64,000 nt of DNA from Oscillospiraceae bacterium (GTDB lineage Bacteria > Bacillota > Clostridia > Oscillospirales > Acutalibacteraceae): positions 672,420 to 736,419 of the forward strand of contig JBKEEO010000002.1 in NCBI GenBank assembly GCA_047777415.1, read 5' to 3'. Shown one piece after another: positions 3,157 to 18,848 of this stretch. The notes beneath the pieces were generated by a model, which saw only the letters and a program-made list of their open reading frames with translations, was not told where the DNA came from and made no database searches. Within the stretch, counting starts at the first letter, position 1; every line of letters begins with the position of its first letter. The position numbers and the translations under genes are program-made.

Positions 3157-4548
3157 ATGAACGATATTGATATCCTGTCAAAGGTAAAGAAGATACATTT
3201 TGTTGGCATCGGCGGTTCCGGCATGTGTCCAATTGCTGAAATCTTGCTTCGCAGAGGATATAAGCTAACCGGATCCGATATTAATGAGTCCGATACGCTT
3301 GAGAGGGTTCGCTCTCATGGAATTCCGGTTTTTATGGAACAGAAAGCTGAAAATATTGACGGAGCAGAACTGGTGGTTTATTCTGCCGCCGTAAAGCAAG
3401 ATAATCCTGAACTTGTGGCTGCACGGGAAAAGAAGATTCCAACGGTGGAACGCTCCGTCATGCTAGGAATGGTAGCACGCCATTATAAAAATACTGTTGC
3501 AGTTTCCGGAACGCACGGCAAAACAACAACAACCGCTATGATTACTCAGATTTTGCTGGGAGCCGGAAAAGACCCTTCCGCTGTCATTGGCGGTAAATTG
3601 CCGTTAATCGGCGGAAACGGCCGTGCTGGACATTCTGATACCATGGTATGTGAAGCCTGCGAATACGTCGACACGTTTTTGCAGCTGTATCCATCCGTTT
3701 CCGTTATTTTGAATATCGACAACGACCACCTTGACTATTTCGGCACCGTGGAAAATATCATCCGCTCCTTCCATCAATTTGCCAAGCAGACGTCCCGTTT
3801 AATTATTGTGAACGGCGATAACGAAAACGCCAAAAAAGCTGTCGATAATATCAATGGCCCGAAAATAGTTACTTACGGCTTTCACAAAGATAATGATTAT
3901 TACGCTGACGACATCTGCGACACCGTACGTGCACGCGAAAAATTCAACGTATATCGCCATGGTGAAAAAGTAGCAGAAATTAATCTGAGCGTGCCGGGCA
4001 AACACAACATCTACAATGCTCTTGCCGCTTTCGCCGTTGCAGATTCTTTCAATATTGCTCCCGATATCATTGCCGAGAATTTGCATCGGTTCACCGGAGT
4101 GCACCGCCGTTTTGAACTTCTGGGTGAATTTAATGGAATTACAATAGCGGACGATTTTGCACATCATCCAACCGAGATAGCTGCCACGCTTACCGCGGCA
4201 AAACAAATGGGTTTTTCTCGCGTTTGGGCGGTGTTTCAGCCGCATACGTATTCCAGAACATTTAATCTGCTCAATGATTTTGCGAAAGTGCTGCAGATTG
4301 CAGACAAAGTTGTGCTTTCCGAAATTTTGGCGGTGCGTGAAACAAACACCTACAATATCTATGCTAAAGATCTGGCCGATAAAATTCCCGGCTGTGTCTG
4401 GTTTAAAACCTTTGATGAAATTGCAGCGTATGTAACGGCTCACGCTCAAGACGGTGATTTAATTTTGACCCTCGGCGGCGGCGACGTTTACAAATGTGCC
4501 AATTTAATCGTTCAAAAATACCGTCGGCAAGAGAAAAATGCCAACTGA
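3157..4548 (+). CDS. murC: UDP-N-acetylmuramate--L-alanine ligase
   Basis: IHFVGIGGSGM, GTHGKTTTT, EACEY, DDFAHHPTEI, FQPHTYSRT; SD AAGGAG. Confidence 0.95.
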   Translation: MNDIDILSKVKKIHFVGIGGSGMCPIAEILLRRGYKLTGSDINESDTLERVRSHGIPVFMEQKAENIDGAELVVYSAAVKQDNPELVAAREKKIPTVERSVMLGMVARHYKNTVAVSGTHGKTTTTAMITQILLGAGKDPSAVIGGKLPLIGGNGRAGHSDTMVCEACEYVDTFLQLYPSVSVILNIDNDHLDYFGTVENIIRSFHQFAKQTSRLIIVNGDNENAKKAVDNINGPKIVTYGFHKDNDYYADDICDTVRAREKFNVYRHGEKVAEINLSVPGKHNIYNALAAFAVADSFNIAPDIIAENLHRFTGVHRRFELLGEFNGITIADDFAHHPTEIAATLTAAKQMGFSRVWAVFQPHTYSRTFNLLNDFAKVLQIADKVVLSEILAVRETNTYNIYAKDLADKIPGCVWFKTFDEIAAYVTAHAQDGDLILTLGGGDVYKCANLIVQKYRRQEKNAN

Positions 4549-4573
4549 CATTTCTGCCTTAACTGCATAAAAA

Positions 4574-4600
4574 AGATGGAATCCTTTTTTGATTCCATCT
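4574..4600. repeat. Left copy of a 27 bp target-site duplication, equal to the murC/uvrA terminator hairpin
   Basis: AGATGGAATC-CTTTTTT-GATTCCATCT, repeated with one mismatch at 10065-10091. Confidence 0.9.
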
Positions 4601-4781
4601 CAGATTGTCGAATAACCCATCCAACGCATTAAGCGAAGGATGGGTTATAGTTTTGCAGAAAGCAAAAAAGCAATGAAACATCCAAAAGTAAAGTGGAAGG
4701 ACGAGATAGGGGCCTGCGGACATTTTATTGGATTATATGGCTAATCCTATTCTGATTCTATATTCTGCTGGACTTAAATTC

Positions 4782-6111
4782 GATAGAGTACAATAAAGTT
4801 CGCAATTTCATAAAAGCATAGAAAAGTCTTGGGACTCCAATAAAATGAATGGCGATAAGACATTCAAAGAAGGAGAGATACCCAATGACTCACAAAAAGG
4901 ATACCACAGATTTGACAGAATTGCTACTAAAATGTATGGCGCAGCCGGATCCAATGCTGTCGATGCTGGAATGGCTGTGTACCCGTCTAATGGAAGCAGA
5001 GGTCTCCGGTATTATTGGCGCAGAAAAGAATGCACACAATCCATCCCGCCGTGATTACCGCTGCGGCTATCGGCCGCGTCGATTGGATACTCGTATGGGG
5101 ACGATGTATCTGATGGTACCAAAACTCCGAAATCAGGGCTATATCCCGTTTTTCGTAACAGAACGCAAGCGCAGTGAAGCAGCGCTGATTCAAGTGGTTC
5201 AAGAAGCGTTTGTGCAGGGTGTATCTACGCGAAAGATGGAGAAACTAGCTCGCAGTCTTGGAATTGAAAATCTTTCTCGCAGTCAAGTCAGTGAAATGAC
5301 GAAAGGTCTTAACGAGCAGGTACAGTACTTCCGCAGCCGGCCTCTGACGGGTCGCTATCCTGTCATTTGGACAGATGCACTGTATGAAAAAATTCGTATG
5401 GATGGCCGGGTCGTCAGCATGGCTGTGATGGTAGTTTGCGGCGTCAATGAACAGGGACATAGGGATATCATTGCTGTAGAGCCAATGCTGGATGAATCTA
5501 AAGAAAGTTATTCTCAATTTTTCAAAGTCTTCTAGATCGTGGTCTGAAAACACCGCTCCTGGTGGTTTCAGACGCGAATAAAGGGCTGATTGCAGCCGTC
5601 CGTGAGAGTTTTCCGGGAGCCTCTTGGCAACGGTGCAAAGTCCATTTTATGCGAAATATTTTGGCTCATGTACCCCAGAAGGAAAAAGAATCCTTTGCGG
5701 CTCAGTTAAAAGAAATTTGGTTAGCACCTTCCGCTAAAATAGCTAGACAACGCGCAGAGCAAATATCAGAACAGTATGGAAAACGCTTTCCAAAAGCAAT
5801 TGAGCTTCTGCAAGATGGGCTGGAAGATTCTCTAGCTTTCTACGCCTTTCCGGAACTCGACGCCCGCAAAATTTCCTCGACCAATATGTTGGAACGACTG
5901 AACAAGGAAATCCGCCGCAGAACCAGTGTAGTCGGAATATTTCCTAATCCGGATTCCTACCTACGGCTGGTAACAACATGTCTCATGGAATATGCGGAGG
6001 ACTGGTCTGTTTCCAGAGCATACTTAAACCCGAAATCCATTCTTTCACTGTTAAACGTAGCCTAATTCATTTTTCGGAGTCCCGAAATTGCGAACTTCCC
6101 TTGACACTAGG
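4782..6111 (+). mobile_element. IS256-family element, 1330 bp
   Basis: 8 bp TSD TTAAATTC at 4774-4781 and 6112-6119; IR core AAGTTCGCAATTTC at both ends. Confidence 0.88.
4885..6065 (+). pseudogene. IS256-family transposase, frameshifted near 5523
   Basis: GYRPRRLDTRMG, GVSTRK, WTDALYEK, QRCKVHFMRN, STNMLERLNKEIRRR; adding one C at TTC(C)AAAGT joins the two ORFs. Confidence 0.88.
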
Positions 6112-7497
6112 TTAAATTCCAAGAGATATTTTGATTCTCATATCCCGATACCATACCATGTAAGTTTCATCTGCTGCATAAAATCCTCTACTGTGATACC
6201 TTGCCAAGAACGGCCGCAGAACATCTCATTCTTCATTCTTCCCAAGAAAACTTCACAGGCTGAATTGTCCGGTGAGCACCCCTTCTGAGACATTGACCTG
6301 ATCAATCCTGCCTTCCGGGTTCGATCTATCCAGCTTGGCCATCGGTAGTGACAGCCTCGATCTGAATGAATAATCAGTCAGCCACTTCTGATTTGGCTTG
6401 TCAGCTCTGAAATTTCTCTGAATAACATTTGGTACTTCAGGGCTAATTTCCCCTTTGTAAGAGCAGTATTTCCTTGCTCTTCTGCCTTTCACAACCAAGC
6501 CATTTTCACGCATAATTTGACGTATCACCTTTTCGGATAGGGTATAGCCCTCTCGGTTCAATACTATTTTAATCCTACGATATCCATATCTTTCCTTATT
6601 GTTATGGAATATGGTCGCAACAGCTTGATAATCATCTTTATGCTTCTTTGCAAAACTGACACGTTTGTTTTGATAGTAATAGCTGCTCTTGGCCAGTTTG
6701 AGCTTTTTTATCAATACAGACAGTGGATACTTCTTTTTTAGGGCATCAACAATCACTGCCTTCTCCCTGTTGTTCAAGGGACTCTTGTTGACGCCGGGGT
6801 CTTTTTTTAGCACATCAATTGTTTTTTCAGAATGTCAATTTCTAACTGCATATCTTGTTACCGATTTCGTTTCTGCATAAACTTCCAGGGCTTTGCGATA
6901 TTGTTCCTCTGAATACATCCTCTATCTCCTTCCTGAGTGTATTTAGTCCAACTTTTTGTCCGCACCCCCCTATCACGAAGTGCTGCCAAAGGTTGTGTAT
7001 CTTAATAGAAAAATGAAGGTTGAAAAAGAATGGACGGCGTACTTAACGGTACTTTCAGAAATTGTAACAAAGGGCTACAAAATAGGGGCTTAATGCTCTG
7101 GAGGAATGGCTGGTGGACAGTGAGTTGGGAATATAGATTAAGGAAGGATGTAGGCGTTAAGGAAGGAATGCGAAATTCGTTGCTCATAATCCTTTTGCAT
7201 AAATTTGATTCCTTACCTGACAATCTATACTTTGCTATTACAAATTAACAAAATGAGAATATTTTAATGGAGTGGCTTAGGAAGGTTTCAGGTATCAATT
7301 CCATAGACGAACTAGAGAAAATGGTGTTTAGTAGAAATTGAATAAATCCTCCTTTACCCTTATTGCCCTTAAACCTCCTATTCCCTAAATCCCTATAATA
7401 TTATGTATATTAGTTGAGATGAGGAAAGGCAGATATTTCAAGGAATTGAAAGTGTTTTAAGGCGACAAAAATTTTAGCAAACTTTATAAATTTGGAC

Positions 7498-7526
7498 TAG
7501 ACAAATTTTTTTGTGCGCGCTATAAT
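7498..7526 (+). promoter_or_regulatory. sigmaA-type promoter of the cargo gene
   Basis: TAGACA-17 bp-TATAAT. Confidence 0.65.
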
Positions 7527-7564
7527 TATCTTATAAATTTATATTACACAGGGGATGATTATCA

Positions 7565-7765
7565 ATGAAAAAGAAAATAAATATTATACTTAATATAGTA
7601 ATACCGACCGCAGTTGCATATATAGTATTTTTCTTGCTTTACTATTTATTCGAAAAAACATTTTTCGAATACAGATGGCTGGGAATAATACCGTTTCTGA
7701 TAGTCACAGGGTTTATTATTTTAGAAAATAGAAAAGAGTGGAAGATGTTAAAGCAACAGAGATAA
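7565..7765 (+). CDS. Small two-TM membrane protein (66 aa), function unknown
   Basis: Own promoter, SD-like AGGGG, two hydrophobic stretches, basic termini, terminator hairpin over the stop. Confidence 0.7.
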   Translation: MKKKINIILNIVIPTAVAYIVFFLLYYLFEKTFFEYRWLGIIPFLIVTGFIILENRKEWKMLKQQR

Positions 7766-7783
7766 GGGAAACCTTATCTCTGT
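7756..7783 (+). terminator. Terminator hairpin of the cargo gene; U-tract replaced by an IS1182 end
   Basis: ACAGAGATAAGG-GAAA-CCTTATCTCTGT, a perfect 12 bp stem; the IS end starts at the next base. Confidence 0.75.
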
Positions 7784-7838
7784 CAGATTGTCGAATAACC
7801 CATCCAACGCATTAAGCGAAGGATGGGTTATTTTTGCA

Positions 7839-9218
7839 GGCTCTATGTCAATAGTTGGGGTAACCCAAAATGGAAACACCGGATGGAGCGGCGTTAAGCT
7901 GCTCCATTTTTCGTTGAATGATGGAACATGTGAAGAATACGATTGCGGAAGCGACGAAAATTACGATAACCGTAGGCATTGCGTTTGAGTACCTTAATCT
8001 TGTTGTTAACCCCTTCGGTAAAACCATTGGTGTAAGGACAATCAAACGAATTTAGAATACCTTTTGACCAGCGAACCATAGTATTTCCACAAGCAACAAA
8101 TTTCAAAAGGCCACTGTTTTGTGCGGCCATAATCCAATGGGATAGCGCTGTCCGTGCAGACACGCTGTCAGAAGATTCAAGGACTTTGAAAAACTGTTCT
8201 TTCAGAGAGTAGGCTGTCAGCAGACGGTTACTGGCATAGAGCATAAGATCGACCTGTTGCTTTTGCTCAGGAGTGAGAAATTGATATCGCTTGTTCAGCA
8301 AGATTCGGGAGCGTTTAAAATGAATTCTTCGGGTTTTGCTGAATTTTTTCTGTTCTTCCTTGCGAACGGCTTCAAAGGCCCAAAATACTTGGCGAATGTA
8401 ATGATATTTGTCAATGACATAATTGGAATTTTTAAAATATGTTTGGGCAATACCGGCATATGTACTCCACATATCGCTGACGAAATGCTTCGTTTTAGAA
8501 CGGTCAAGCTGGCCGAAATATTCTGTCAGTTTGTGGTTGTATCGAGCAGGAAGAATATCAAGAATTCGGTGACGGACCGGATCGGTCAGAATGCACTGAT
8601 ATTTCTCGCCGCTTGTATTGCCTTTAAACTCATCAATCGATACAACTTCAGGTAATTGCTGCGGTTTTCCATAATGGATACAATCGAAAAGACGGATAAT
8701 AGTTGAAACAGATAGATTCACCTCACATGCTACACTGGTAAAAGAACGCACGTCGGAAAGCTTTGAAATGATATATACGGCTAAACGGTTTGTCATGCGG
8801 TGATATCTAGGCAAAAACGAATTATCCTCAAAGAAACGCTTTCCACAAGAATGGCAGCGATATCGGCGCTTTCGTAGAATCAGGGAGGTATGTTTGCCAA
8901 AAGCGGGAATGTCTTTCACGGTTTGACAACGGTAATCATGAACGTAGCTGGTTTGATGGCCACAACAGGGGCAAACATGCGGCTTTCTCGGTAACTCAAT
9001 AAAAATTTCCGTTTTATCAGGCAATTGCCTCACATTTTTTACGATTACCCCTTTTAATCCAAGCAATTTTTCGATAGAATGAGTACAGAGCATATCGATG
9101 ACCTCCCAAATGGTGGTGTGGTAATCTCCATTTTAAAGTTTTTTCATCGAATATGCTCTACTTTTTTGCTCTTTTTTCGCAGGCCTATTCGTCACACCCC
9201 AACATTTATTATAGAGCC
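7839..9218 (-). mobile_element. ISL3-family element copy 1, 1380 bp
   Basis: Ends GGCTCTA...GTTGGGGT in inverted orientation; 8 bp TSD TTTTTGCA (7831-7838, 9219-9226). Confidence 0.95.
7894..9093 (-). CDS. ISL3-family transposase (intact ORF)
   Basis: CPCCG/CHSCG zinc finger, SIDEFKG, SDMW, IDKYHY, TNGFTEGVNNKIKVLKRNAYG. Confidence 0.95.
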   Translation of the reverse strand: MLCTHSIEKLLGLKGVIVKNVRQLPDKTEIFIELPRKPHVCPCCGHQTSYVHDYRCQTVKDIPAFGKHTSLILRKRRYRCHSCGKRFFEDNSFLPRYHRMTNRLAVYIISKLSDVRSFTSVACEVNLSVSTIIRLFDCIHYGKPQQLPEVVSIDEFKGNTSGEKYQCILTDPVRHRILDILPARYNHKLTEYFGQLDRSKTKHFVSDMWSTYAGIAQTYFKNSNYVIDKYHYIRQVFWAFEAVRKEEQKKFSKTRRIHFKRSRILLNKRYQFLTPEQKQQVDLMLYASNRLLTAYSLKEQFFKVLESSDSVSARTALSHWIMAAQNSGLLKFVACGNTMVRWSKGILNSFDCPYTNGFTEGVNNKIKVLKRNAYGYRNFRRFRNRILHMFHHSTKNGAA

Positions 9219-9989
9219 TTTTTGCAGAAAGCAAAAAAGTGATATGATATCCAGACAAAAGTGGAAGGATGACCATCCCTCCACTTCCACATTGCCAGCT
9301 TTTTGAGATTCATGGCAGCAAACTTAAGCTTAACCCAATTTGTCACTTGAGTTAAGCCCCGGTAGAGCGTGTATCGCATTCCATACTTTTCTTTTGCATC
9401 AGCAAATACACGTTCAATAGTTTCTTTTCGCTTTTGATAGAGCTTTTTGTATTTTGGAGTATGCCGAATGTCCTCCGCTAGTTCTACATAATTTTGCCAC
9501 ACATGCCTTGTCACAGTTTTCGTATAGCTTTTGCTGTTTGTGCAGCGGGAACGGGACGGACATTTTTTGCAAATATAACTTCTACTTTTGTATTCTCAGT
9601 ATCCTTCACAATTGGTTGTGGCATAGTGCAAAACTTGATATTAAGAGCACAGTACATAGTCATAATATTCGTCATATACATATTTCCACCATTGAAGATG
9701 GCCAGCTTTGGTCATCGGTCTTTTGTATGCTGTAGATAGTACTCGCTTGTCATCAAAGACCCGTTTGCAGATATGCGGTGTTTTGTAGGCAGCGTCCGCC
9801 ACCACCGTCTCAATTTCAGGAAACTGTCTTGTCACTTTGTCATAGACTGCATCGAATGCCACACTGTCGTGCACATTTCCGGGAGTCACCTCAACTCCTA
9901 GAACAAAATTGTGATAGGGCCTGCGGCACCAATAGGTCTATATTGACAAATTCTACTGCATTCCTGTGCATTTTTCCTCGTTCCAGCAT
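9219..9989 (-). pseudogene. IS1182-family transposase pseudogene
   Basis: MLERGKMHRNAVEFVNIDLLVPQ fused by deletion to HNFVLGVEVTPGNVHDS; DAAYKT; in-frame stops; RKETIERVFADAK. Confidence 0.87.
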
Positions 9990-10026
9990 CTTTCATCACC
10001 CATTTCTATTTTACCATCTTACAATC

Positions 10027-10054
10027 AAAAAGCCCAGCTTTCGCTGGACTTTTT
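10027..10054 (-). terminator. IS-borne terminator facing incoming uvrA transcription
   Basis: Minus strand AAAAAGTCCAGC-GAAA-GCTGGGCTTTTT (one G-U pair) ending in a U run. Confidence 0.65.
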
Positions 10055-10064
10055 CGACAGGCTG

Positions 10065-10091
10065 AGACGGAATCCTTTTTTGATTCCATCT
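10065..10091. repeat. Right copy of the 27 bp target-site duplication
   Basis: AGACGGAATCCTTTTTTGATTCCATCT, 26/27 identical to 4574-4600. Confidence 0.9.
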
Positions 10092-10167
10092 TTTTTATGA
10101 TACTTTTGCACTCTGAGCAAATGTTAGCTAAATTTCCAAACACACACGATAAGTGTTGCTTTATTCA

Positions 10168-13011
10168 TTACGACTCTGCGGAATGTTCTTCTGACAGCAT
10201 TTTTTTCAGATACTGTCCCGTATAAGACTCTGGAACCTTTGCAATCTCTTCTGGTGTTCCGGTTGCCACAACCTGCCCGCCGGCATCTCCGCCTTCCGGG
10301 CCAAGGTCAACAATGTAATCAGCCGTTTTAATGAGGTCAAGATTATGCTCAATCACAAGGACAGTATTTCCCCCATCCACCAATTTTTGCAGCACTTCAA
10401 TCAGTTTATGAACATCTGCAATATGCAAACCTGTGGTAGGCTCGTCCAAAATATAGATGGTACGCCCTGTTGAACGTTTTGCAAGCTCGGCCGCCAATTT
10501 GACACGCTGCGCTTCCCCGCCGGAAAGAGTTGTTGCGGGCTGACCTATTTTTATATATCCAAGGCCTACGTCCTGAAGCGTTTGTAATTTGCGGGCTATG
10601 TGCGGAATTTCTGAGAAAAATTGGAGACCTTCCTCTACGGTCATTTCAAGAACATCGTAAATACTTTTGCCTTTGTATTTGATTTCCAGTGTTTCTCTGT
10701 TATAGCGTTTTCCCTTGCACACATCGCAGGGAACATAAACGTCCGGCAGAAAATTCATTTCAATCTTGATAATGCCGTCGCCCTCGCACGCTTCGCATCT
10801 TCCGCCTTTTACATTGAAGGAGAAACGCCCCTGTGTATAACCGCGCAGCTTTGCATCCGGCGTAGAGGCAAACAATGCCCGAATATCGGTAAAGACGCCC
10901 GTATAGGTTGCCGGGTTAGAACGGGGTGTGCGTCCAATAGGAGATTGGTCAATCTGAATGACTTTATCCAACGCGTTAAGCCCAGTAATTTTCCGAAAAG
11001 CTCCCGGCCGTGATTTTGCACCGTTAAGTTCCGCCGCAAGATATTTATAAAGAATTTCATTAATCAGTGAGGATTTTCCCGATCCGGATACACCGGTAAC
11101 ACAGATAAATGTGCCAAGCGGAAAGGTTACGTTAATATTTTTTAAATTGTTTTGTGATGCTCCGATAATGGATAGCTTTTTCCCGTTTCCCTTGCGGCGA
11201 ACAGAGGGAATTTCCACTTTTCTGCGGCCGCTAAGGTAGTCACCGGTAATGGAATTTTTGCATTTTAAAAGATCTTGAACCTTGCCGCTGAAAACGATTT
11301 TTCCTCCATGCACACCGGCTCCGGGACCTATGTCCACAATGTGGTCGGCAGCCAACATAGTTTCCTCATCGTGTTCTACAACAATGACTGTGTTTCCAAT
11401 GTCCCTCAAATGTTTCAGAGTATCCAGTAGTTTGGCATTATCCCTCTGATGCAAACCAATACTCGGTTCGTCCAAAATATACAAAACACCGGTAAGGGAG
11501 GAACCAATTTGAGTTGCCAGCCTGATACGTTGACTCTCCCCGCCTGACAGTGTTCCCGCTGAGCGAGAGAGAGTCAGATACTCCAATCCTACATTTTTTA
11601 AGAAGCCAAGTCGACTGCGAATCTCACGCAAAATCAAACGGGCTATCATGTTTTCACGGTCTGTGAGTTTCAGATGATCAAAAAAATTAAGCGCTTCTGT
11701 GATAGATTTATCGCACAGATCTGCAATATTAATACCGCCAACCGTAACAGACAGACTCGCGGGAGACAGTCTTTTGCCGTGGCAAGCATCGCAGGGAATT
11801 GCACTCATATAGGACTGAATCTCTTCCTTAATCCAGTTGCTCTGTGTATCCCTGTAGCGACGTTCCAAATTGTTGATGATGCCTTCAAACGTTGTTTGAT
11901 AAACACTGTGCGCAAATTCTGTGCTGCGTTCTACTGTTATTTTTTCACCGTTTGTACCATACAGCAAAATATCTATAATCTTTTTGGGCAACTTTTTAAT
12001 CGGTGTATCAAGCGAAAAATGATAGTGCTTCGCAAGTGCACGGAAATACATTGACGCAATGGAGTTGCCTTCCATTGCCCATCCGCTCGCCTTGATCCCG
12101 CCTTGATTGATGGAAAGGGATTTATCCGGAATAATGCGGTCGGGGTCAATTTTCATAAAAACACCGAGTCCAGCGCATTTTGGACAAGCACCAAATGGAC
12201 TGTTGAAAGAAAACATTCTTGGCGCAAGTTCTTCCATGCTGACACCGTGCTCCGGGCAGGCGTAGTTCTGCGAAAACACATGATCCTCTCCGTCGACAAC
12301 GCTGATAACAGTCAATCCTCCTGCAAGACTGGAGGCAGTTTCTATCGAATCTGCCAAACGAGAACGGACGCTTTGGTGAATAACAAGCCGGTCAACTACA
12401 ACTTCAATGGTATGCTTCTTGTTCTTTTCCAACTTGATTGTCTCGGATAAATCATAAATCATACCGTCCACACGGACACGAACATAACCGCTTTTGCGTG
12501 CAGCCTCCAGCGTTTTAAGATGTTCGCCTTTTCGTTCACGCACAACCGGTGCAAGGACAAGAATTTTAGAATTCTCCGGCAAACTTAGCACCTGGTCGAC
12601 AATCTGGTCCACTGTCTGCTGCCGGATTTCTCTGCCACAGACCGGGCAGTGCGGGATTCCGATTCTGGCATACAAAAGCCTCAGATAGTCATAGATTTCC
12701 GTTACAGTTCCCACCGTAGAACGCGGATTTTTTGAGGTTGTCTTTTGGTCAATGGATATGGACGGAGAAAGGCCATCAATAGAATCAACATCCGGCTTAT
12801 TTGCCTGTCCGAGGAACTGACGTGCATAGGCTGACAGCGACTCCACATATCTTCGCTGACCTTCAGCATAGATTGTGTCAAACGCAAGCGAGGACTTTCC
12901 GGAACCGGAAAGTCCAGTAAAGACAATCAGCTTGTCACGCGGAATTTTTAAATCGATGTTTTTTAAATTGTGCTCTCTTGCACCTTTGATCAATATATTT
13001 TTTGCTGGCAT
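10168..13011 (-). CDS. uvrA: Excinuclease ABC subunit A
   Basis: GLSGSGKSS and GVSGSGKSS Walker A motifs, two LSGGE motifs, zinc fingers, 947 aa. Confidence 0.98.
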
Positions 13012-17450: not shown

Positions 17451-17463
17451 TAGAATTGAGAAA

Positions 17464-18843
17464 GGCTCTATAATAAATGTTGGGGTGTGACGAATAGGCC
17501 TGCGAAAAAAGAGCAAAAAAGTAGAGCATATTCGATGAAAAAACTTTAAAATGGAGATTACCACACCACCATTTGGGAGGTCATCGATATGCTCTGTACT
17601 CATTCTATCGAAAAATTGCTTGGATTAAAAGGGGTAATCGTAAAAAATGTGAGGCAATTGCCTGATAAAACGGAAATTTTTATTGAGTTACCGAGAAAGC
17701 CGCATGTTTGCCCCTGTTGTGGCCATCAAACCAGCTACGTTCATGATTACCGTTGTCAAACCGTGAAAGACATTCCCGCTTTTGGCAAACATACCTCCCT
17801 GATTCTACGAAAGCGCCGATATCGCTGCCATTCTTGTGGAAAGCGTTTCTTTGAGGATAATTCGTTTTTGCCTAGATATCATCGCATGACAAACCGTTTA
17901 GCCTCATATATCATTTCAAAGCTTTCCGACGTGCGTTCTTTTACCAGTGTAGCACGTGAAGTAAATCTATCTGTTTCAACTATTATCCGGATTTTCGATT
18001 GTATCCACTATGGAAAGCCACAGCAATTACCCGAAGTCGTATCAATTGATGAGTTTAAAGGCAATACAAGCGGAGAGAAATATCAGTGCATTCTGACCGA
18101 TCCGGTCCGTCACCGAATCCTTGATATTCTTCCTGCTCGTTACAACCACAAACTGACAGAATATTTCAGCCGGATTGACCGTTCTCAAACCAAACATTTT
18201 GTCAGCGATATGTGGAGTACATACGCCGGTATTGCTCAAACATATTTTAAAGATTCAATTTATGTCATTGACAAATATCATTACATTCGCCAAGTATTTT
18301 GGGCCTTTGAAGCCGTTCGCAAGGAAGAACAGAAAAAATTCAGTAAAACCCGAAGAATTTATTTTAAACGCTCCCGAATCTTACTGAACAAGCGATATCA
18401 ATTTCTCACTCCGGAGCAAAAGCAACAGGTCGATCTTATGCTCTATGCCAGCAACCGTCTGCTGACAGCCTACTCTCTTAAAGAACAGTTCTTCAAAGTC
18501 CTGGATTCTCCCGATAGTCAATCTGCACGGACAGCGCTATCCCATTGGATTATGGCCGCACAAAACAGTGGTCTTTCAAGATTTGTTGCTTGTGGAAATA
18601 CCATGGTCCGCTGGTCAAAAGGTATTCTAAATTCGTTTGATTGTCCTTACACCAATGGTTTTACCGAAGGGGTTAACAACAAGATTAAGGTACTCAAACG
18701 CAATGCCTACGGTTATCGTAATTTTCGTCGCTTCCGCAATCGTATTCTTCACATGTTCCATCATTCAACGAAAAATGGAGCAGCTTAACGCCGCTCCATC
18801 CGGTGTTTCCATTTTGGGTTACCCCAACTATTGACATAGAGCC
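17464..18843 (+). mobile_element. ISL3-family element copy 2, 1380 bp
   Basis: GGCTCTA...TAGAGCC ends; 8 bp TSD TTGAGAAA (17456-17463, 18844-18851). Confidence 0.95.
17589..18788 (+). CDS. ISL3-family transposase (intact ORF)
   Basis: 399 aa, near-identical to 7894-9093. Confidence 0.95.
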   Translation: MLCTHSIEKLLGLKGVIVKNVRQLPDKTEIFIELPRKPHVCPCCGHQTSYVHDYRCQTVKDIPAFGKHTSLILRKRRYRCHSCGKRFFEDNSFLPRYHRMTNRLASYIISKLSDVRSFTSVAREVNLSVSTIIRIFDCIHYGKPQQLPEVVSIDEFKGNTSGEKYQCILTDPVRHRILDILPARYNHKLTEYFSRIDRSQTKHFVSDMWSTYAGIAQTYFKDSIYVIDKYHYIRQVFWAFEAVRKEEQKKFSKTRRIYFKRSRILLNKRYQFLTPEQKQQVDLMLYASNRLLTAYSLKEQFFKVLDSPDSQSARTALSHWIMAAQNSGLSRFVACGNTMVRWSKGILNSFDCPYTNGFTEGVNNKIKVLKRNAYGYRNFRRFRNRILHMFHHSTKNGAA

Positions 18844-18848
18844 TTGAG

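Follow-up and report, generated by a model that had tools for sequence, protein, structure and literature searches.

An IS1182-family insertion with two direct left ends, one right end and enclosed foreign DNA in a duplicated murC/uvrA terminator hairpin

How does a dead insertion sequence come to hold a second copy of one of its own ends, with foreign DNA between the two copies? The question is raised by a block at positions 4601-10064 of the window, by which we mean the whole 64,000-nucleotide stretch of Oscillospiraceae DNA that was analysed. In this block a dead IS1182-family element is accompanied by a duplicate of one of its ends, the two copies of that end enclose 0.8 kb of foreign DNA, and the whole sits in a duplicated terminator hairpin between murC and uvrA. 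Transposition of the block as a unit and its construction in place by ordinary recombination would be predicted to leave the same sequence.

The insertion site is flanked on the left by murC (3157-4548, plus strand; Pfam Mur_ligase domains), whose product is 84% identical to the Caprobacter/Caproicibacter MurC, and on the right by uvrA (10168-13011, minus strand; UvrA Pfam domains). The exact MurC sequence was retrieved from the source contig only. To the left of murC, a 190-aa ORF with a flavoprotein domain lies on the minus strand (1533-2105); its start is probably TTG. The murC/uvrA intergenic hairpin is a bidirectional terminator with a perfect 10-bp stem, and it is present in two 27-bp copies, at 4574-4600 (-7.8 kcal/mol, z -6.3) and 10065-10091, which agree at 26 of 27 positions, the right copy carrying one T-to-C change in the stem. 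Because relatives with a 93%-identical MurC (L008, L009 and L013) keep a single empty hairpin between murC and uvrA, 4601-10064 is an insertion; among these nearest relatives, the hairpin is either empty or has an ISL3 element beside it. An Rfam scan of 4300-10400 gave no match.

Within the insertion, the IS1182 left end occurs twice in direct orientation, at 4601 and 7784, and the right end once, at 10064. An earlier note, made from the letters of this DNA, had claimed two direct left ends with one opposite end, a 27-bp target site duplication (TSD) around the outer pair, a loss of similarity between the left ends by about 100 bp and an empty murC/uvrA site to be sought in relatives, and on each of these points it is borne out. 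The insertion into the murC/uvrA hairpin is bounded by the outer left end on one side and the single right end on the other. The first 48 nt of the two left ends (4601-4648 and 7784-7831) are identical at 48/48 positions, or 49 if the preceding T is counted, and this 48-mer has no third copy in the 64 kb, with none expected by chance. When the nested IS3 and ISL3 elements are removed, the alignment runs through the shared positions 1-48, a 2-bp indel and 20 more shared bases, past which the two ends differ at 10 of ~34 positions up to 4704. The outer remnant (4601-4704, plus strand) comprises a terminal 11-mer, a hairpin of 37 nt (4612-4648) and a transposase C-terminal tail that has diverged. 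Identity to the standard element is 85%, over a match of 104 bp that ends at 4704, and the tail retains the C-terminal reading frame of the transposase; the outer end is a true sibling end and no look-alike. ISEcp1 and other IS1380-type elements mobilize adjacent DNA via a weak chance look-alike lying beyond their normal end. A move of DNA beside an IS by an alternative end would be common to both cases, but the end in the window is a genuine sibling with 48 identical bp and a diverged transposase tail; of the surrogate end proposed earlier, the extra outer end exists and its surrogate character falls away. We also considered the abrupt change from 48/48 identity to a diverged tail as a recombination breakpoint and rejected it, as the terminal module is conserved and the tail hypervariable among all copies: the comparison with the T. 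melissae copy gave 42/48 for the terminal module and ~60% for the tail, and L062 was likewise compared.

The single right end (10038-10064, minus strand) has one match in the window and agrees at 146/146 positions with L004, a full sibling copy of 1515 bp bounded by CAGATTGTCGAA and CAGCCTGTCGAA; the window has the same ends. These terminal 12-mers are identical at 10/12 positions, with a stable hairpin in the subterminal position after each. An exact 22-nt left-end pattern found no match in viral and metagenome contig collections (the source sample series is evidently outside both). The gene of L004, present as two frameshifted halves, scored 143.7 and 234.5 bits against NCBIfam NF033551 (profile positions 6-149 and 202-488), each half singly falling below the cut-off of 270 bits. 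Matches to the IS1182-type profiles (NF033551; Pfam DUF772, DDE_Tnp_1 and DDE_Tnp_1_6) were obtained, the window copy retaining the C-terminal domains only, and terminal inverted repeats surround the 1515-bp element, which lies within the ~1.3-2 kb characteristic of IS1182. In T. melissae, the homologue bears the annotation IS1182 family transposase. Direct target repeats in the IS1182 family vary in length from 0 to 60 bp (ISfinder). Here the repeats of the window and of L004 are both 27 bp long and those of L003 and L006 35 bp, and each is a whole hairpin; whole-hairpin duplication is a property of this IS1182 group. In two of five sibling copies checked, L062 (on the same contig) and the T. 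melissae plasmid copy, different hairpins stand on the two sides, and mismatches are distributed patchily between copies. IS1182 copies seem to recombine with one another commonly, although the differing hairpins could have another cause, such as an insertion in the gap between neighbouring hairpins. No full element with the outer type of tail was present among the best 120 of 2206 transposase matches or in the 90% cluster.

The enclosed foreign DNA derives from a second, older IS1182 insertion site. It is made up of a 3' fragment of a 290-307-aa gene, a 66-aa ORF and this module's own hairpin, which abuts the second IS1182 left end. The first part (6975-7564, plus strand) contains the decayed gene fragment, starting at about codon 172, and an intergenic region in which a promoter scan placed a promoter-like site at 7498-7526; it has in-frame stops, and intact genes in L019, L033, L057 and others match it at 70-88% nucleotide identity. 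An intact homologue of the 290-307-aa gene has no Pfam, NCBIfam or PHROG match, and a reading of the 290-aa gene as Rpn/YhgA-like, made from the sequence, was dropped on that ground. The second part is the intact 66-aa ORF (7565-7765, plus strand), which reads as a small membrane protein. The "cargo gene" of the earlier note comprises this one small ORF and a gene fragment. Proteins 92-94% identical to the 66-aa product occur in Geosporobacter, Caloramator, Acidilutibacter and Clostridium MAGs, and the exact protein occurs in one contig, the source, among ~15 billion proteins. The module is widespread in Clostridia, under the label 'MULTISPECIES [Clostridia]' and with 92-94% protein identity across families, and in relatives it always stands beside a recombinase (tyrosine or serine) and variable defence genes or cassettes. 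On these grounds the module looks mobile. The cargo gave no match in PLSDB plasmids.

The hairpin of the module (7756-7783) has a 12-bp stem and -11.3 kcal/mol, and no second copy of it was detected in the window with up to 3 mismatches allowed. Relatives read ...GGGATAAGGGAAACCTTATCTCTGT|TTTGTTAGGGGG at this point, with no IS, and the hairpin follows the 66-aa ORF in this IS-free state in ~45 homologous loci, none of which has an IS1182 adjoining the module. The partnerless hairpin had been recognized before, as had a first insertion of the IS at the cargo's terminator, and the inner end is indeed the mark of a genuine IS1182 insertion that took place earlier at the hairpin belonging to the cargo ORF.

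That inner element (7784-10064, minus strand) has ISL3 inside it and is an 893-bp deletion derivative made up of 7784-7838 and 9227-10064. Its transposase gene is a minus-strand pseudogene with the C-terminal ~270 codons left, two stops and remnant DDE_Tnp_1 and DDE_Tnp_1_6 domains; nothing in the block can now transpose autonomously. Relative to the full copy (L004:4405-5919), an ATAGGG filler at 9914-9919 replaces ~627 bp, which cover most of the transposase gene's N-terminal half. The junction GTG-ATAGGG-CC(T/C)GCGG is common to window positions 9911-9926 and to L062, a second copy ~230 kb away on the same contig that is 96% identical over 893 bp. Because the junction is identical in L062, the deletion was inherited from a repeated deletion derivative and did not arise by local decay; the same internal deletion at different loci is what a non-autonomous derivative displays. 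Against the standard element, the inner element shows 96.7% identity at 9219-9913 and 100% at 9920-10064. We dropped a mosaic reading of this contrast, which is uninformative because mismatches are patchy throughout (positions 92-426, for example, have 2 in 335 bp). L062 also carries the T30 and GAAAGC variants, which are therefore lineage variants. The inner copy combines a tail (71-91) like that of the standard element with a body bearing the L062-lineage variants and the deletion, as a hybrid copy would, and weakly suggests such an origin.

IS3, IS256 (which entered IS3 afterwards) and ISL3 are later arrivals in the block, and the earlier note had identified all three. The IS3-family element (4705-6974, minus strand; HTH_21 domain) has two internal deletions and is 93-96% identical to L003:880-2347; a transpos_IS3 score was obtained for the full copy. 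Within it lies an IS256-family element (4782-6111, plus strand) with an 8-bp TSD, TTAAATTC, a stop-split gene with Transposase_mut in two ORFs, and 97% identity to the L003 copy. The ISL3-family element (7839-9218, minus strand) has an intact 399-aa transposase with Pfam and NCBIfam ISL3 matches and an 8-bp TSD, TTTTTGCA, at 7831-7838 and 9219-9226; a second copy is located at 17461-18844, its ends and its own 8-bp TSD being read from the sequence. IS3 is flanked by ACGA at 4701-4704 and 6975-6978. On the right, the ACGA belongs natively to the cargo gene, relatives reading AAT/AAC-GAA there, and at the left position every other IS1182 copy reads ATGA. With ACGA on both sides, and a left one such as would be expected if the cargo-side sequence had been copied, IS3 has the look of a simple insertion made later. 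The IS3-free junction of the block reads AAAGTGGAAGGACGAAGTGCTGCC, and a further block junction CCTTATCTCTGTCAGATTGTCG.

What process, then, brought the outer end and the cargo together? We slightly prefer, with a probability of roughly 0.4, an assembly of the block by recombination of a circle-borne IS1182 with a resident IS1182, followed by deletion. A resident copy, the source of the outer left end, would have occupied the murC/uvrA hairpin, and a second copy would have sat at the hairpin of the 66-aa ORF on a dispensable circular element. By homologous recombination between these copies, the circle would be integrated and left bracketed by two IS copies with hybrid flanks. One illegitimate deletion would then remove all else, its endpoints being position ~101 in the left copy and codon ~172 in the 290-aa gene. 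Such a course would need no unusual transposition, and the 27-bp TSD would be the resident IS's own. We count in its favour the empty hairpin of the relatives, the duplication of whole hairpins by this group, the unoccupied native hairpin of the cargo, the mobile look of the cargo, the apparent recombination among IS1182 copies, the hybrid-like inner copy and the apparently simple insertion of IS3. Against it, the deletion must remove a whole circular element while sparing 0.8 kb, and no strain with a plain IS1182 at the murC/uvrA hairpin was found among the relatives compared. In IS26 pseudo-compound transposons, a translocatable unit inserts beside a resident IS26 by a targeted conservative reaction of its own transposase, leaving two full IS copies. 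The likeness lies in a cargo circle that joins a resident IS, whose TSD then flanks the larger structure, but the window would owe its structure to host homologous recombination and keeps 104 bp of the second copy.

Transposition of the block as one unit, which the earlier note had put first, is possible but doubtful. Here a donor locus would have held a sibling's remnant left end 0.8 kb upstream of the copy at the 66-aa ORF hairpin, and an IS1182 transposase acting in trans would have paired this orphan end with the right end of the downstream copy, carrying the gene fragment and the expressible 66-aa ORF into another gene's terminator hairpin and making the 27-bp TSD there. The layout is that of a three-ended element, two like ends in direct orientation and one opposite, with the TSD flanking exactly the outer left end and the right end; a classical compound transposon would have two complete IS copies around the cargo, and the outer copy here amounts to 104 bp only. 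The terminal module of 48 nt is complete in the outer end and matches that of the inner end at every position, so that the outer end should be a competent substrate. Intact 470-aa transposase genes and near-identical IS1182 copies are present in related genomes, a copy of the intact type running off the start of L004; the occurrence of the 893-bp derivative at two loci fits mobilization in trans, and two direct IS1182 copies lie just 4 kb apart in L004. Tn1721/Tn1722 is a three-ended Tn3-family transposon of replicative mechanism, in which the mobility of both units is proven experimentally. As in the window, a complete inner element and a third end with a truncated transposase remnant bracket a passenger, and both units have valid end pairs; the differences are another, replicative transposase family and a mobility that for the block in the window is putative. 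Within the family, IS1272L has two direct left ends 25 bp apart, that is, a tandemly duplicated left end, with no cargo and one right end, and a new insertion had the larger form (PMC5678879). It resembles the window in its ends but differs in their spacing, which in the window is 3.2 kb (~0.9 kb without the nested IS) and encloses foreign DNA. IS1272 itself also targets a stem-loop, which is reported to be replaced with no TSD (PMC5678879), whereas the group in the window duplicates the whole hairpin (25-35 bp).

The search for the same unit elsewhere speaks against such a move. The unit is single-copy, the exact 66-aa protein being confined to the source contig; no other locus joins the cargo to an IS1182 end or offers further copies with other TSDs; neither a second copy nor a donor locus was found in the loci compared, where the best cargo match was 88%; and none of the ~45 module loci has the donor configuration. 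An earlier deletion joining sibling position ~101 to the middle of the 290-aa gene would be required as well. Because the three-ended transposition predicts the same final sequence and nothing beyond it, our preference for recombination rests on the plausibility of the processes and not on a discriminating observation; the circle recombining into a resident IS, which the earlier note had offered as its alternative, would be at least as likely as the unit move.

Import by IS3 is very unlikely and largely refuted. Cargo and part of an IS1182 would have lain between two IS3 copies; recombination of IS3 with IS3, or movement as an IS3 compound transposon, would have brought them into a plain resident IS1182, with the IS3 at 4705 as the left joint and the IS3-like filler at 9914 as the right one. 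The IS1182 homology of the outer remnant does end 0-3 bp from IS3, the cargo homology to relatives begins at its other side, and the filler (G-ATAGGG-CCTGCGG) resembles the IS3 end GATAGGGGCCTGCGG. However, filler and deletion junction recur in L062, hence they are no local joint and no IS3 footprint of imported DNA, and the ACGA on both sides, with the left one departing from the ATGA of all other IS1182 copies as copied cargo-side sequence would, fits a simple insertion.

Improbable to a slightly greater degree is a two-ended sibling with internal cargo at murC/uvrA, into whose internal hairpin a second copy inserted before recombination deleted the second right end and the second hairpin copy. 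The group does insert in hairpins within sibling elements (L003, L005 and L006), and direct repeats of 0.9-1.5 kb readily recombine, but this course takes the most steps of any, no such IS1182 appeared among the closest 120 of 2206 transposase matches or in the loci compared, and the cargo starts mid-gene. An artefact, in which a metagenome assembler joined two IS1182 sites via a repeated nested IS, is prompted by the 1.14-Mb metagenome contig and the multi-copy ISL3, IS256 and IS3 (1.3-1.5 kb full-length) and is just as improbable given the matching TSD and seamless resumption at each nested IS, the synteny of both flanks with relatives and left ends that share only ~70 bp, too short to mislead a long-read assembler.

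Had the block moved as a unit, a hairpin-targeting IS1182 could ferry small passenger genes from terminator to terminator via orphan ends, a Tn1721-like form of gene capture by a family whose insertion in terminators leaves genes undisrupted; IS1272L, which has no cargo, hints at such a route. If built by recombination, the block would be an ordinary IS nest. The locus exemplifies how the TSD of a resident IS can mimic the signature of unit transposition, and it is a worked example of whole-hairpin duplication by an IS1182 subgroup in caproate-type Oscillospiraceae, of IS1182 elements inserting in each other's subterminal hairpins and of a deletion derivative present at two loci.

The initial 27-mer of the IS1182 left (L) end, for which no occurrence is expected by chance, is found at just two places in the 64-kb window, 4601 (outer) and 7784 (inner), both on the + strand, and a repeat finder extends the identity to 48–49 bp. 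The window has a single opposite (R) end, at 10038–10064. The 27-bp sequences flanking the outer L end (4574–4600) and the R end (10065–10091) match at 26 of 27 positions and fold with a perfect 10-bp stem. The inner L end adjoins another hairpin, with a stem of 12 bp (7756–7783), and no second copy of it was found in the window with up to three mismatches allowed. With the nested insertion sequences removed, the two L ends have positions 1–48 in common, followed by a 2-bp indel and 20 further common bases; beyond these, 10 of ~34 positions differ up to 4704. The structure described in an earlier note on this DNA is thereby confirmed, from the directly repeated end with a single partner, the target site duplication (TSD) around the outer pair and the unduplicated inner hairpin to the fading of similarity by about 100 bp.

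MurC is 84% identical to that of Caprobacter/Caproicibacter, placing the organism near these genera. In contigs with 93%-identical MurC (L008, L009 and L013), uvrA directly follows murC, and a single hairpin, AAAAAATGATGGAATCGGGAAAATGATTCCATCATTTTTT, stands alone between them. This empty site indicates that 4601–10064 was inserted into a bidirectional terminator, as the earlier note had proposed; none of these three contigs carries the cargo there without IS ends. In two further 93%-MurC relatives (L007:9420–10790 and L010), an ISL3 with the 8-bp TSD AAAAAATG lies immediately beside the murC/uvrA terminator hairpin. The intergenic region is thus a place where IS have landed repeatedly.

A search with the C-terminal 238 residues of the transposase pseudogene retrieved a 95%-identical protein on many sister-sample contigs. 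The full element (L004:4405–5919, 1515 bp) ends in CAGATTGTCGAA and CAGCCTGTCGAA, with a subterminal hairpin after each, and lies between the two perfectly matching copies of a duplicated 27-bp hairpin. Its transposase is encoded in two frameshifted halves, and the match to NCBIfam transpos_IS1182 spans the whole profile; a neighbouring L004 copy has an uninterrupted 470-aa gene. The two copies (L004:1–400 and 4405–5919), in the same orientation around 4 kb with GH25/Big_2 and CoA-transferase genes, are a potential compound transposon in which the second copy carries a TSD of its own. At L003:4913–5975, and likewise in L005 and L006, an L004-type IS1182 interrupts the IS1182-like L end of another element (CAGATTGTTAAA plus hairpin) within its subterminal hairpin, all 35 bp of which are duplicated. 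Together, the 27-bp and 35-bp duplications indicate that whole-hairpin target duplication is a property of this IS1182 subgroup. These elements target one another's end hairpins, and insertion into a sibling's end hairpin by itself yields two left ends in direct orientation. Similarly, IS1272, an IS1182 relative, uses stem-loops as targets, and in its IS1272L form the left end is duplicated (PMC5678879), as in the window block. An 84%-identical element annotated as IS1182 family, present on a Thermocaproicibacter melissae plasmid (L015:1–1526 with L016; NZ_CP101828.1), adjoins a type III-A cas10 gene and has two different flanking hairpins, AGAGAAGAATTCCAAAGAATTCTTCTCT and GGCTGATAACATAATGTTATCAGCC, with no TSD.

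Compared with the full copy, the inner element (7784–10064) lacks ~627 bp, most of the N-terminal half of the transposase gene, replaced by the filler ATAGGG (9914–9919). A second, 890-bp deletion derivative ~230 kb away on the same source contig (L062:4830–5745; Ga0642476_0007, ~694–705 kb) carries the identical junction GTG-ATAGGG-CC(C)GCGG and is 96% identical over 893 bp, with three substitutions in each terminal 11-mer. The inner element is thus a member of a repeated deletion-derivative lineage, its deletion older than this locus, and the filler is not a local IS3 footprint. The L062 derivative, like the T. melissae copy, has different hairpins on its two sides, suggestive of recombination between copies. 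A 60-bp patch at 9653–9712 (inner-element positions 427–486) has 9 mismatches to the standard copy and 8 to L062, against ~1–3% elsewhere in the element body, and resembles a short tract converted by a diverged, unseen copy.

All 0.8 kb of cargo (6979–7783) aligned at 70–88% identity to loci encoding 92–94%-identical homologues of its 66-aa ORF in Geosporobacter, Caloramator, Acidilutibacter and a caproate-reactor Clostridium MAG; the ORF is also present in many bioreactor metagenomes. At these loci an intact 290–307-aa gene, without a match in Pfam, NCBIfam or PHROG, lies upstream; the window keeps just its 3' part, from ~codon 172, with stop codons. The hairpin at 7756–7783 is native to the cargo module; its counterpart in relatives leads into TTTGTTAGGGGG and a second small ORF, without any IS. 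The module's neighbours are a recombinase of the tyrosine or serine type and a varying set of defence genes, among them HsdR of type I restriction, GmrSD, and an OLD-type nuclease with a UvrD helicase; this setting suggests that the module resides on a mobile, probably circularising, element. The search for a donor locus, proposed in the earlier note, ended at 88% identity among the loci compared, and the exact window 66-aa ORF was found in no other contig.

The boundaries of the nested elements were all checked against other copies. An IS3-family element (4705–6974), 93–96% identical to L003:880–2347 with two internal deletions, contains an IS256-family element (4782–6111; 8-bp TSD TTAAATTC, split transposase gene). 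Within the inner L end lies an ISL3-family element (7839–9218; 8-bp TSD TTTTTGCA), whose ends agree with those of a second ISL3 copy (17461–18844; 96.3% identical, own 8-bp TSD TTGAGAAA). Homology of the outer remnant to IS1182 stops at 4704, and that of the cargo to its relatives starts at GAAGTG, directly after the IS3, which has ACGA on either side (4701–4704 and 6975–6978). Since the cargo's relatives have AAT-GAA or AAC-GAA here, the right ACGA belongs to the cargo itself; all other IS1182 copies have ATGA in place of the left ACGA, which fits a duplicated IS3 target. On this basis we read the IS3 as a simple insertion that came late, into a junction which an illegitimate deletion would already have made. 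That it landed 0–3 bp from the older remnant/cargo junction is a coincidence without an explanatory mechanism.

Three-ended transposition and recombination each take four events, one of them a deletion of the same kind, and both predict the observed sequence exactly. We tentatively favour (probability about 0.4) recombination of a resident IS1182 with a copy on a circular element. The resident would have sat in the murC/uvrA hairpin and the second copy at the 66-aa ORF's hairpin on the circle; their recombination would give a cointegrate with two hybrid-flank copies, and one deletion would start at ~position 101 of the left copy and reach into the 290-aa gene. This slight preference rests on how often a copy's two flanks differ, the resemblance of the cargo module to part of a circular mobile element and the single-copy state of the outer end–cargo–inner element unit. 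That last observation also weighs against three-ended transposition, in which the orphan outer L end and the downstream copy's R end were used together, which we consider only slightly less likely, and for which IS1272L is a family precedent. Of the earlier note's two proposals, the block moving as one unit is not singled out by the sequence, and the circle entering a resident IS gains only the slight preference. The 48/48 L-end identity, which reflects a conserved terminal module beside a hypervariable tail, does not discriminate between the routes. Variants common to both L ends were rejected as a discriminator, being lineage variants also found in L062, as was the mismatch pattern to the standard element, which is patchy throughout. 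IS3-mediated import (which L062 largely refutes), nested insertion into a cargo-carrying IS, and misassembly share the rest of the probability, together about as much as three-ended transposition.

The IS1182 family is known, and both its use of stem-loops as targets and the duplication of left ends have precedents; other families provide examples of three-ended transposons and of cargo joined to a resident IS. The block is a real structure. It is inactive and present in a single copy, ordinary processes can account for it, and its significance is modest unless mobility of the unit is demonstrated.

Across Clostridia (L019 and L042–L061; ~45 loci in all), the 290–307-aa protein gene is followed by the 66-aa ORF, whose product reads as a membrane protein, the hairpin and the second small ORF. 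Without exception, this conserved pair lies upstream of a tyrosine/serine recombinase and of defence cassettes that vary (OLD with UvrD, GmrSD, type I restriction-modification, TnsA-like); it resembles the constant border of a recombinase-driven defence island or mobile element. At L045:5432–7451, an IS21-type element (rve plus IstB) sits just past the 66-aa ORF's hairpin, so that this downstream spot draws other IS families too.
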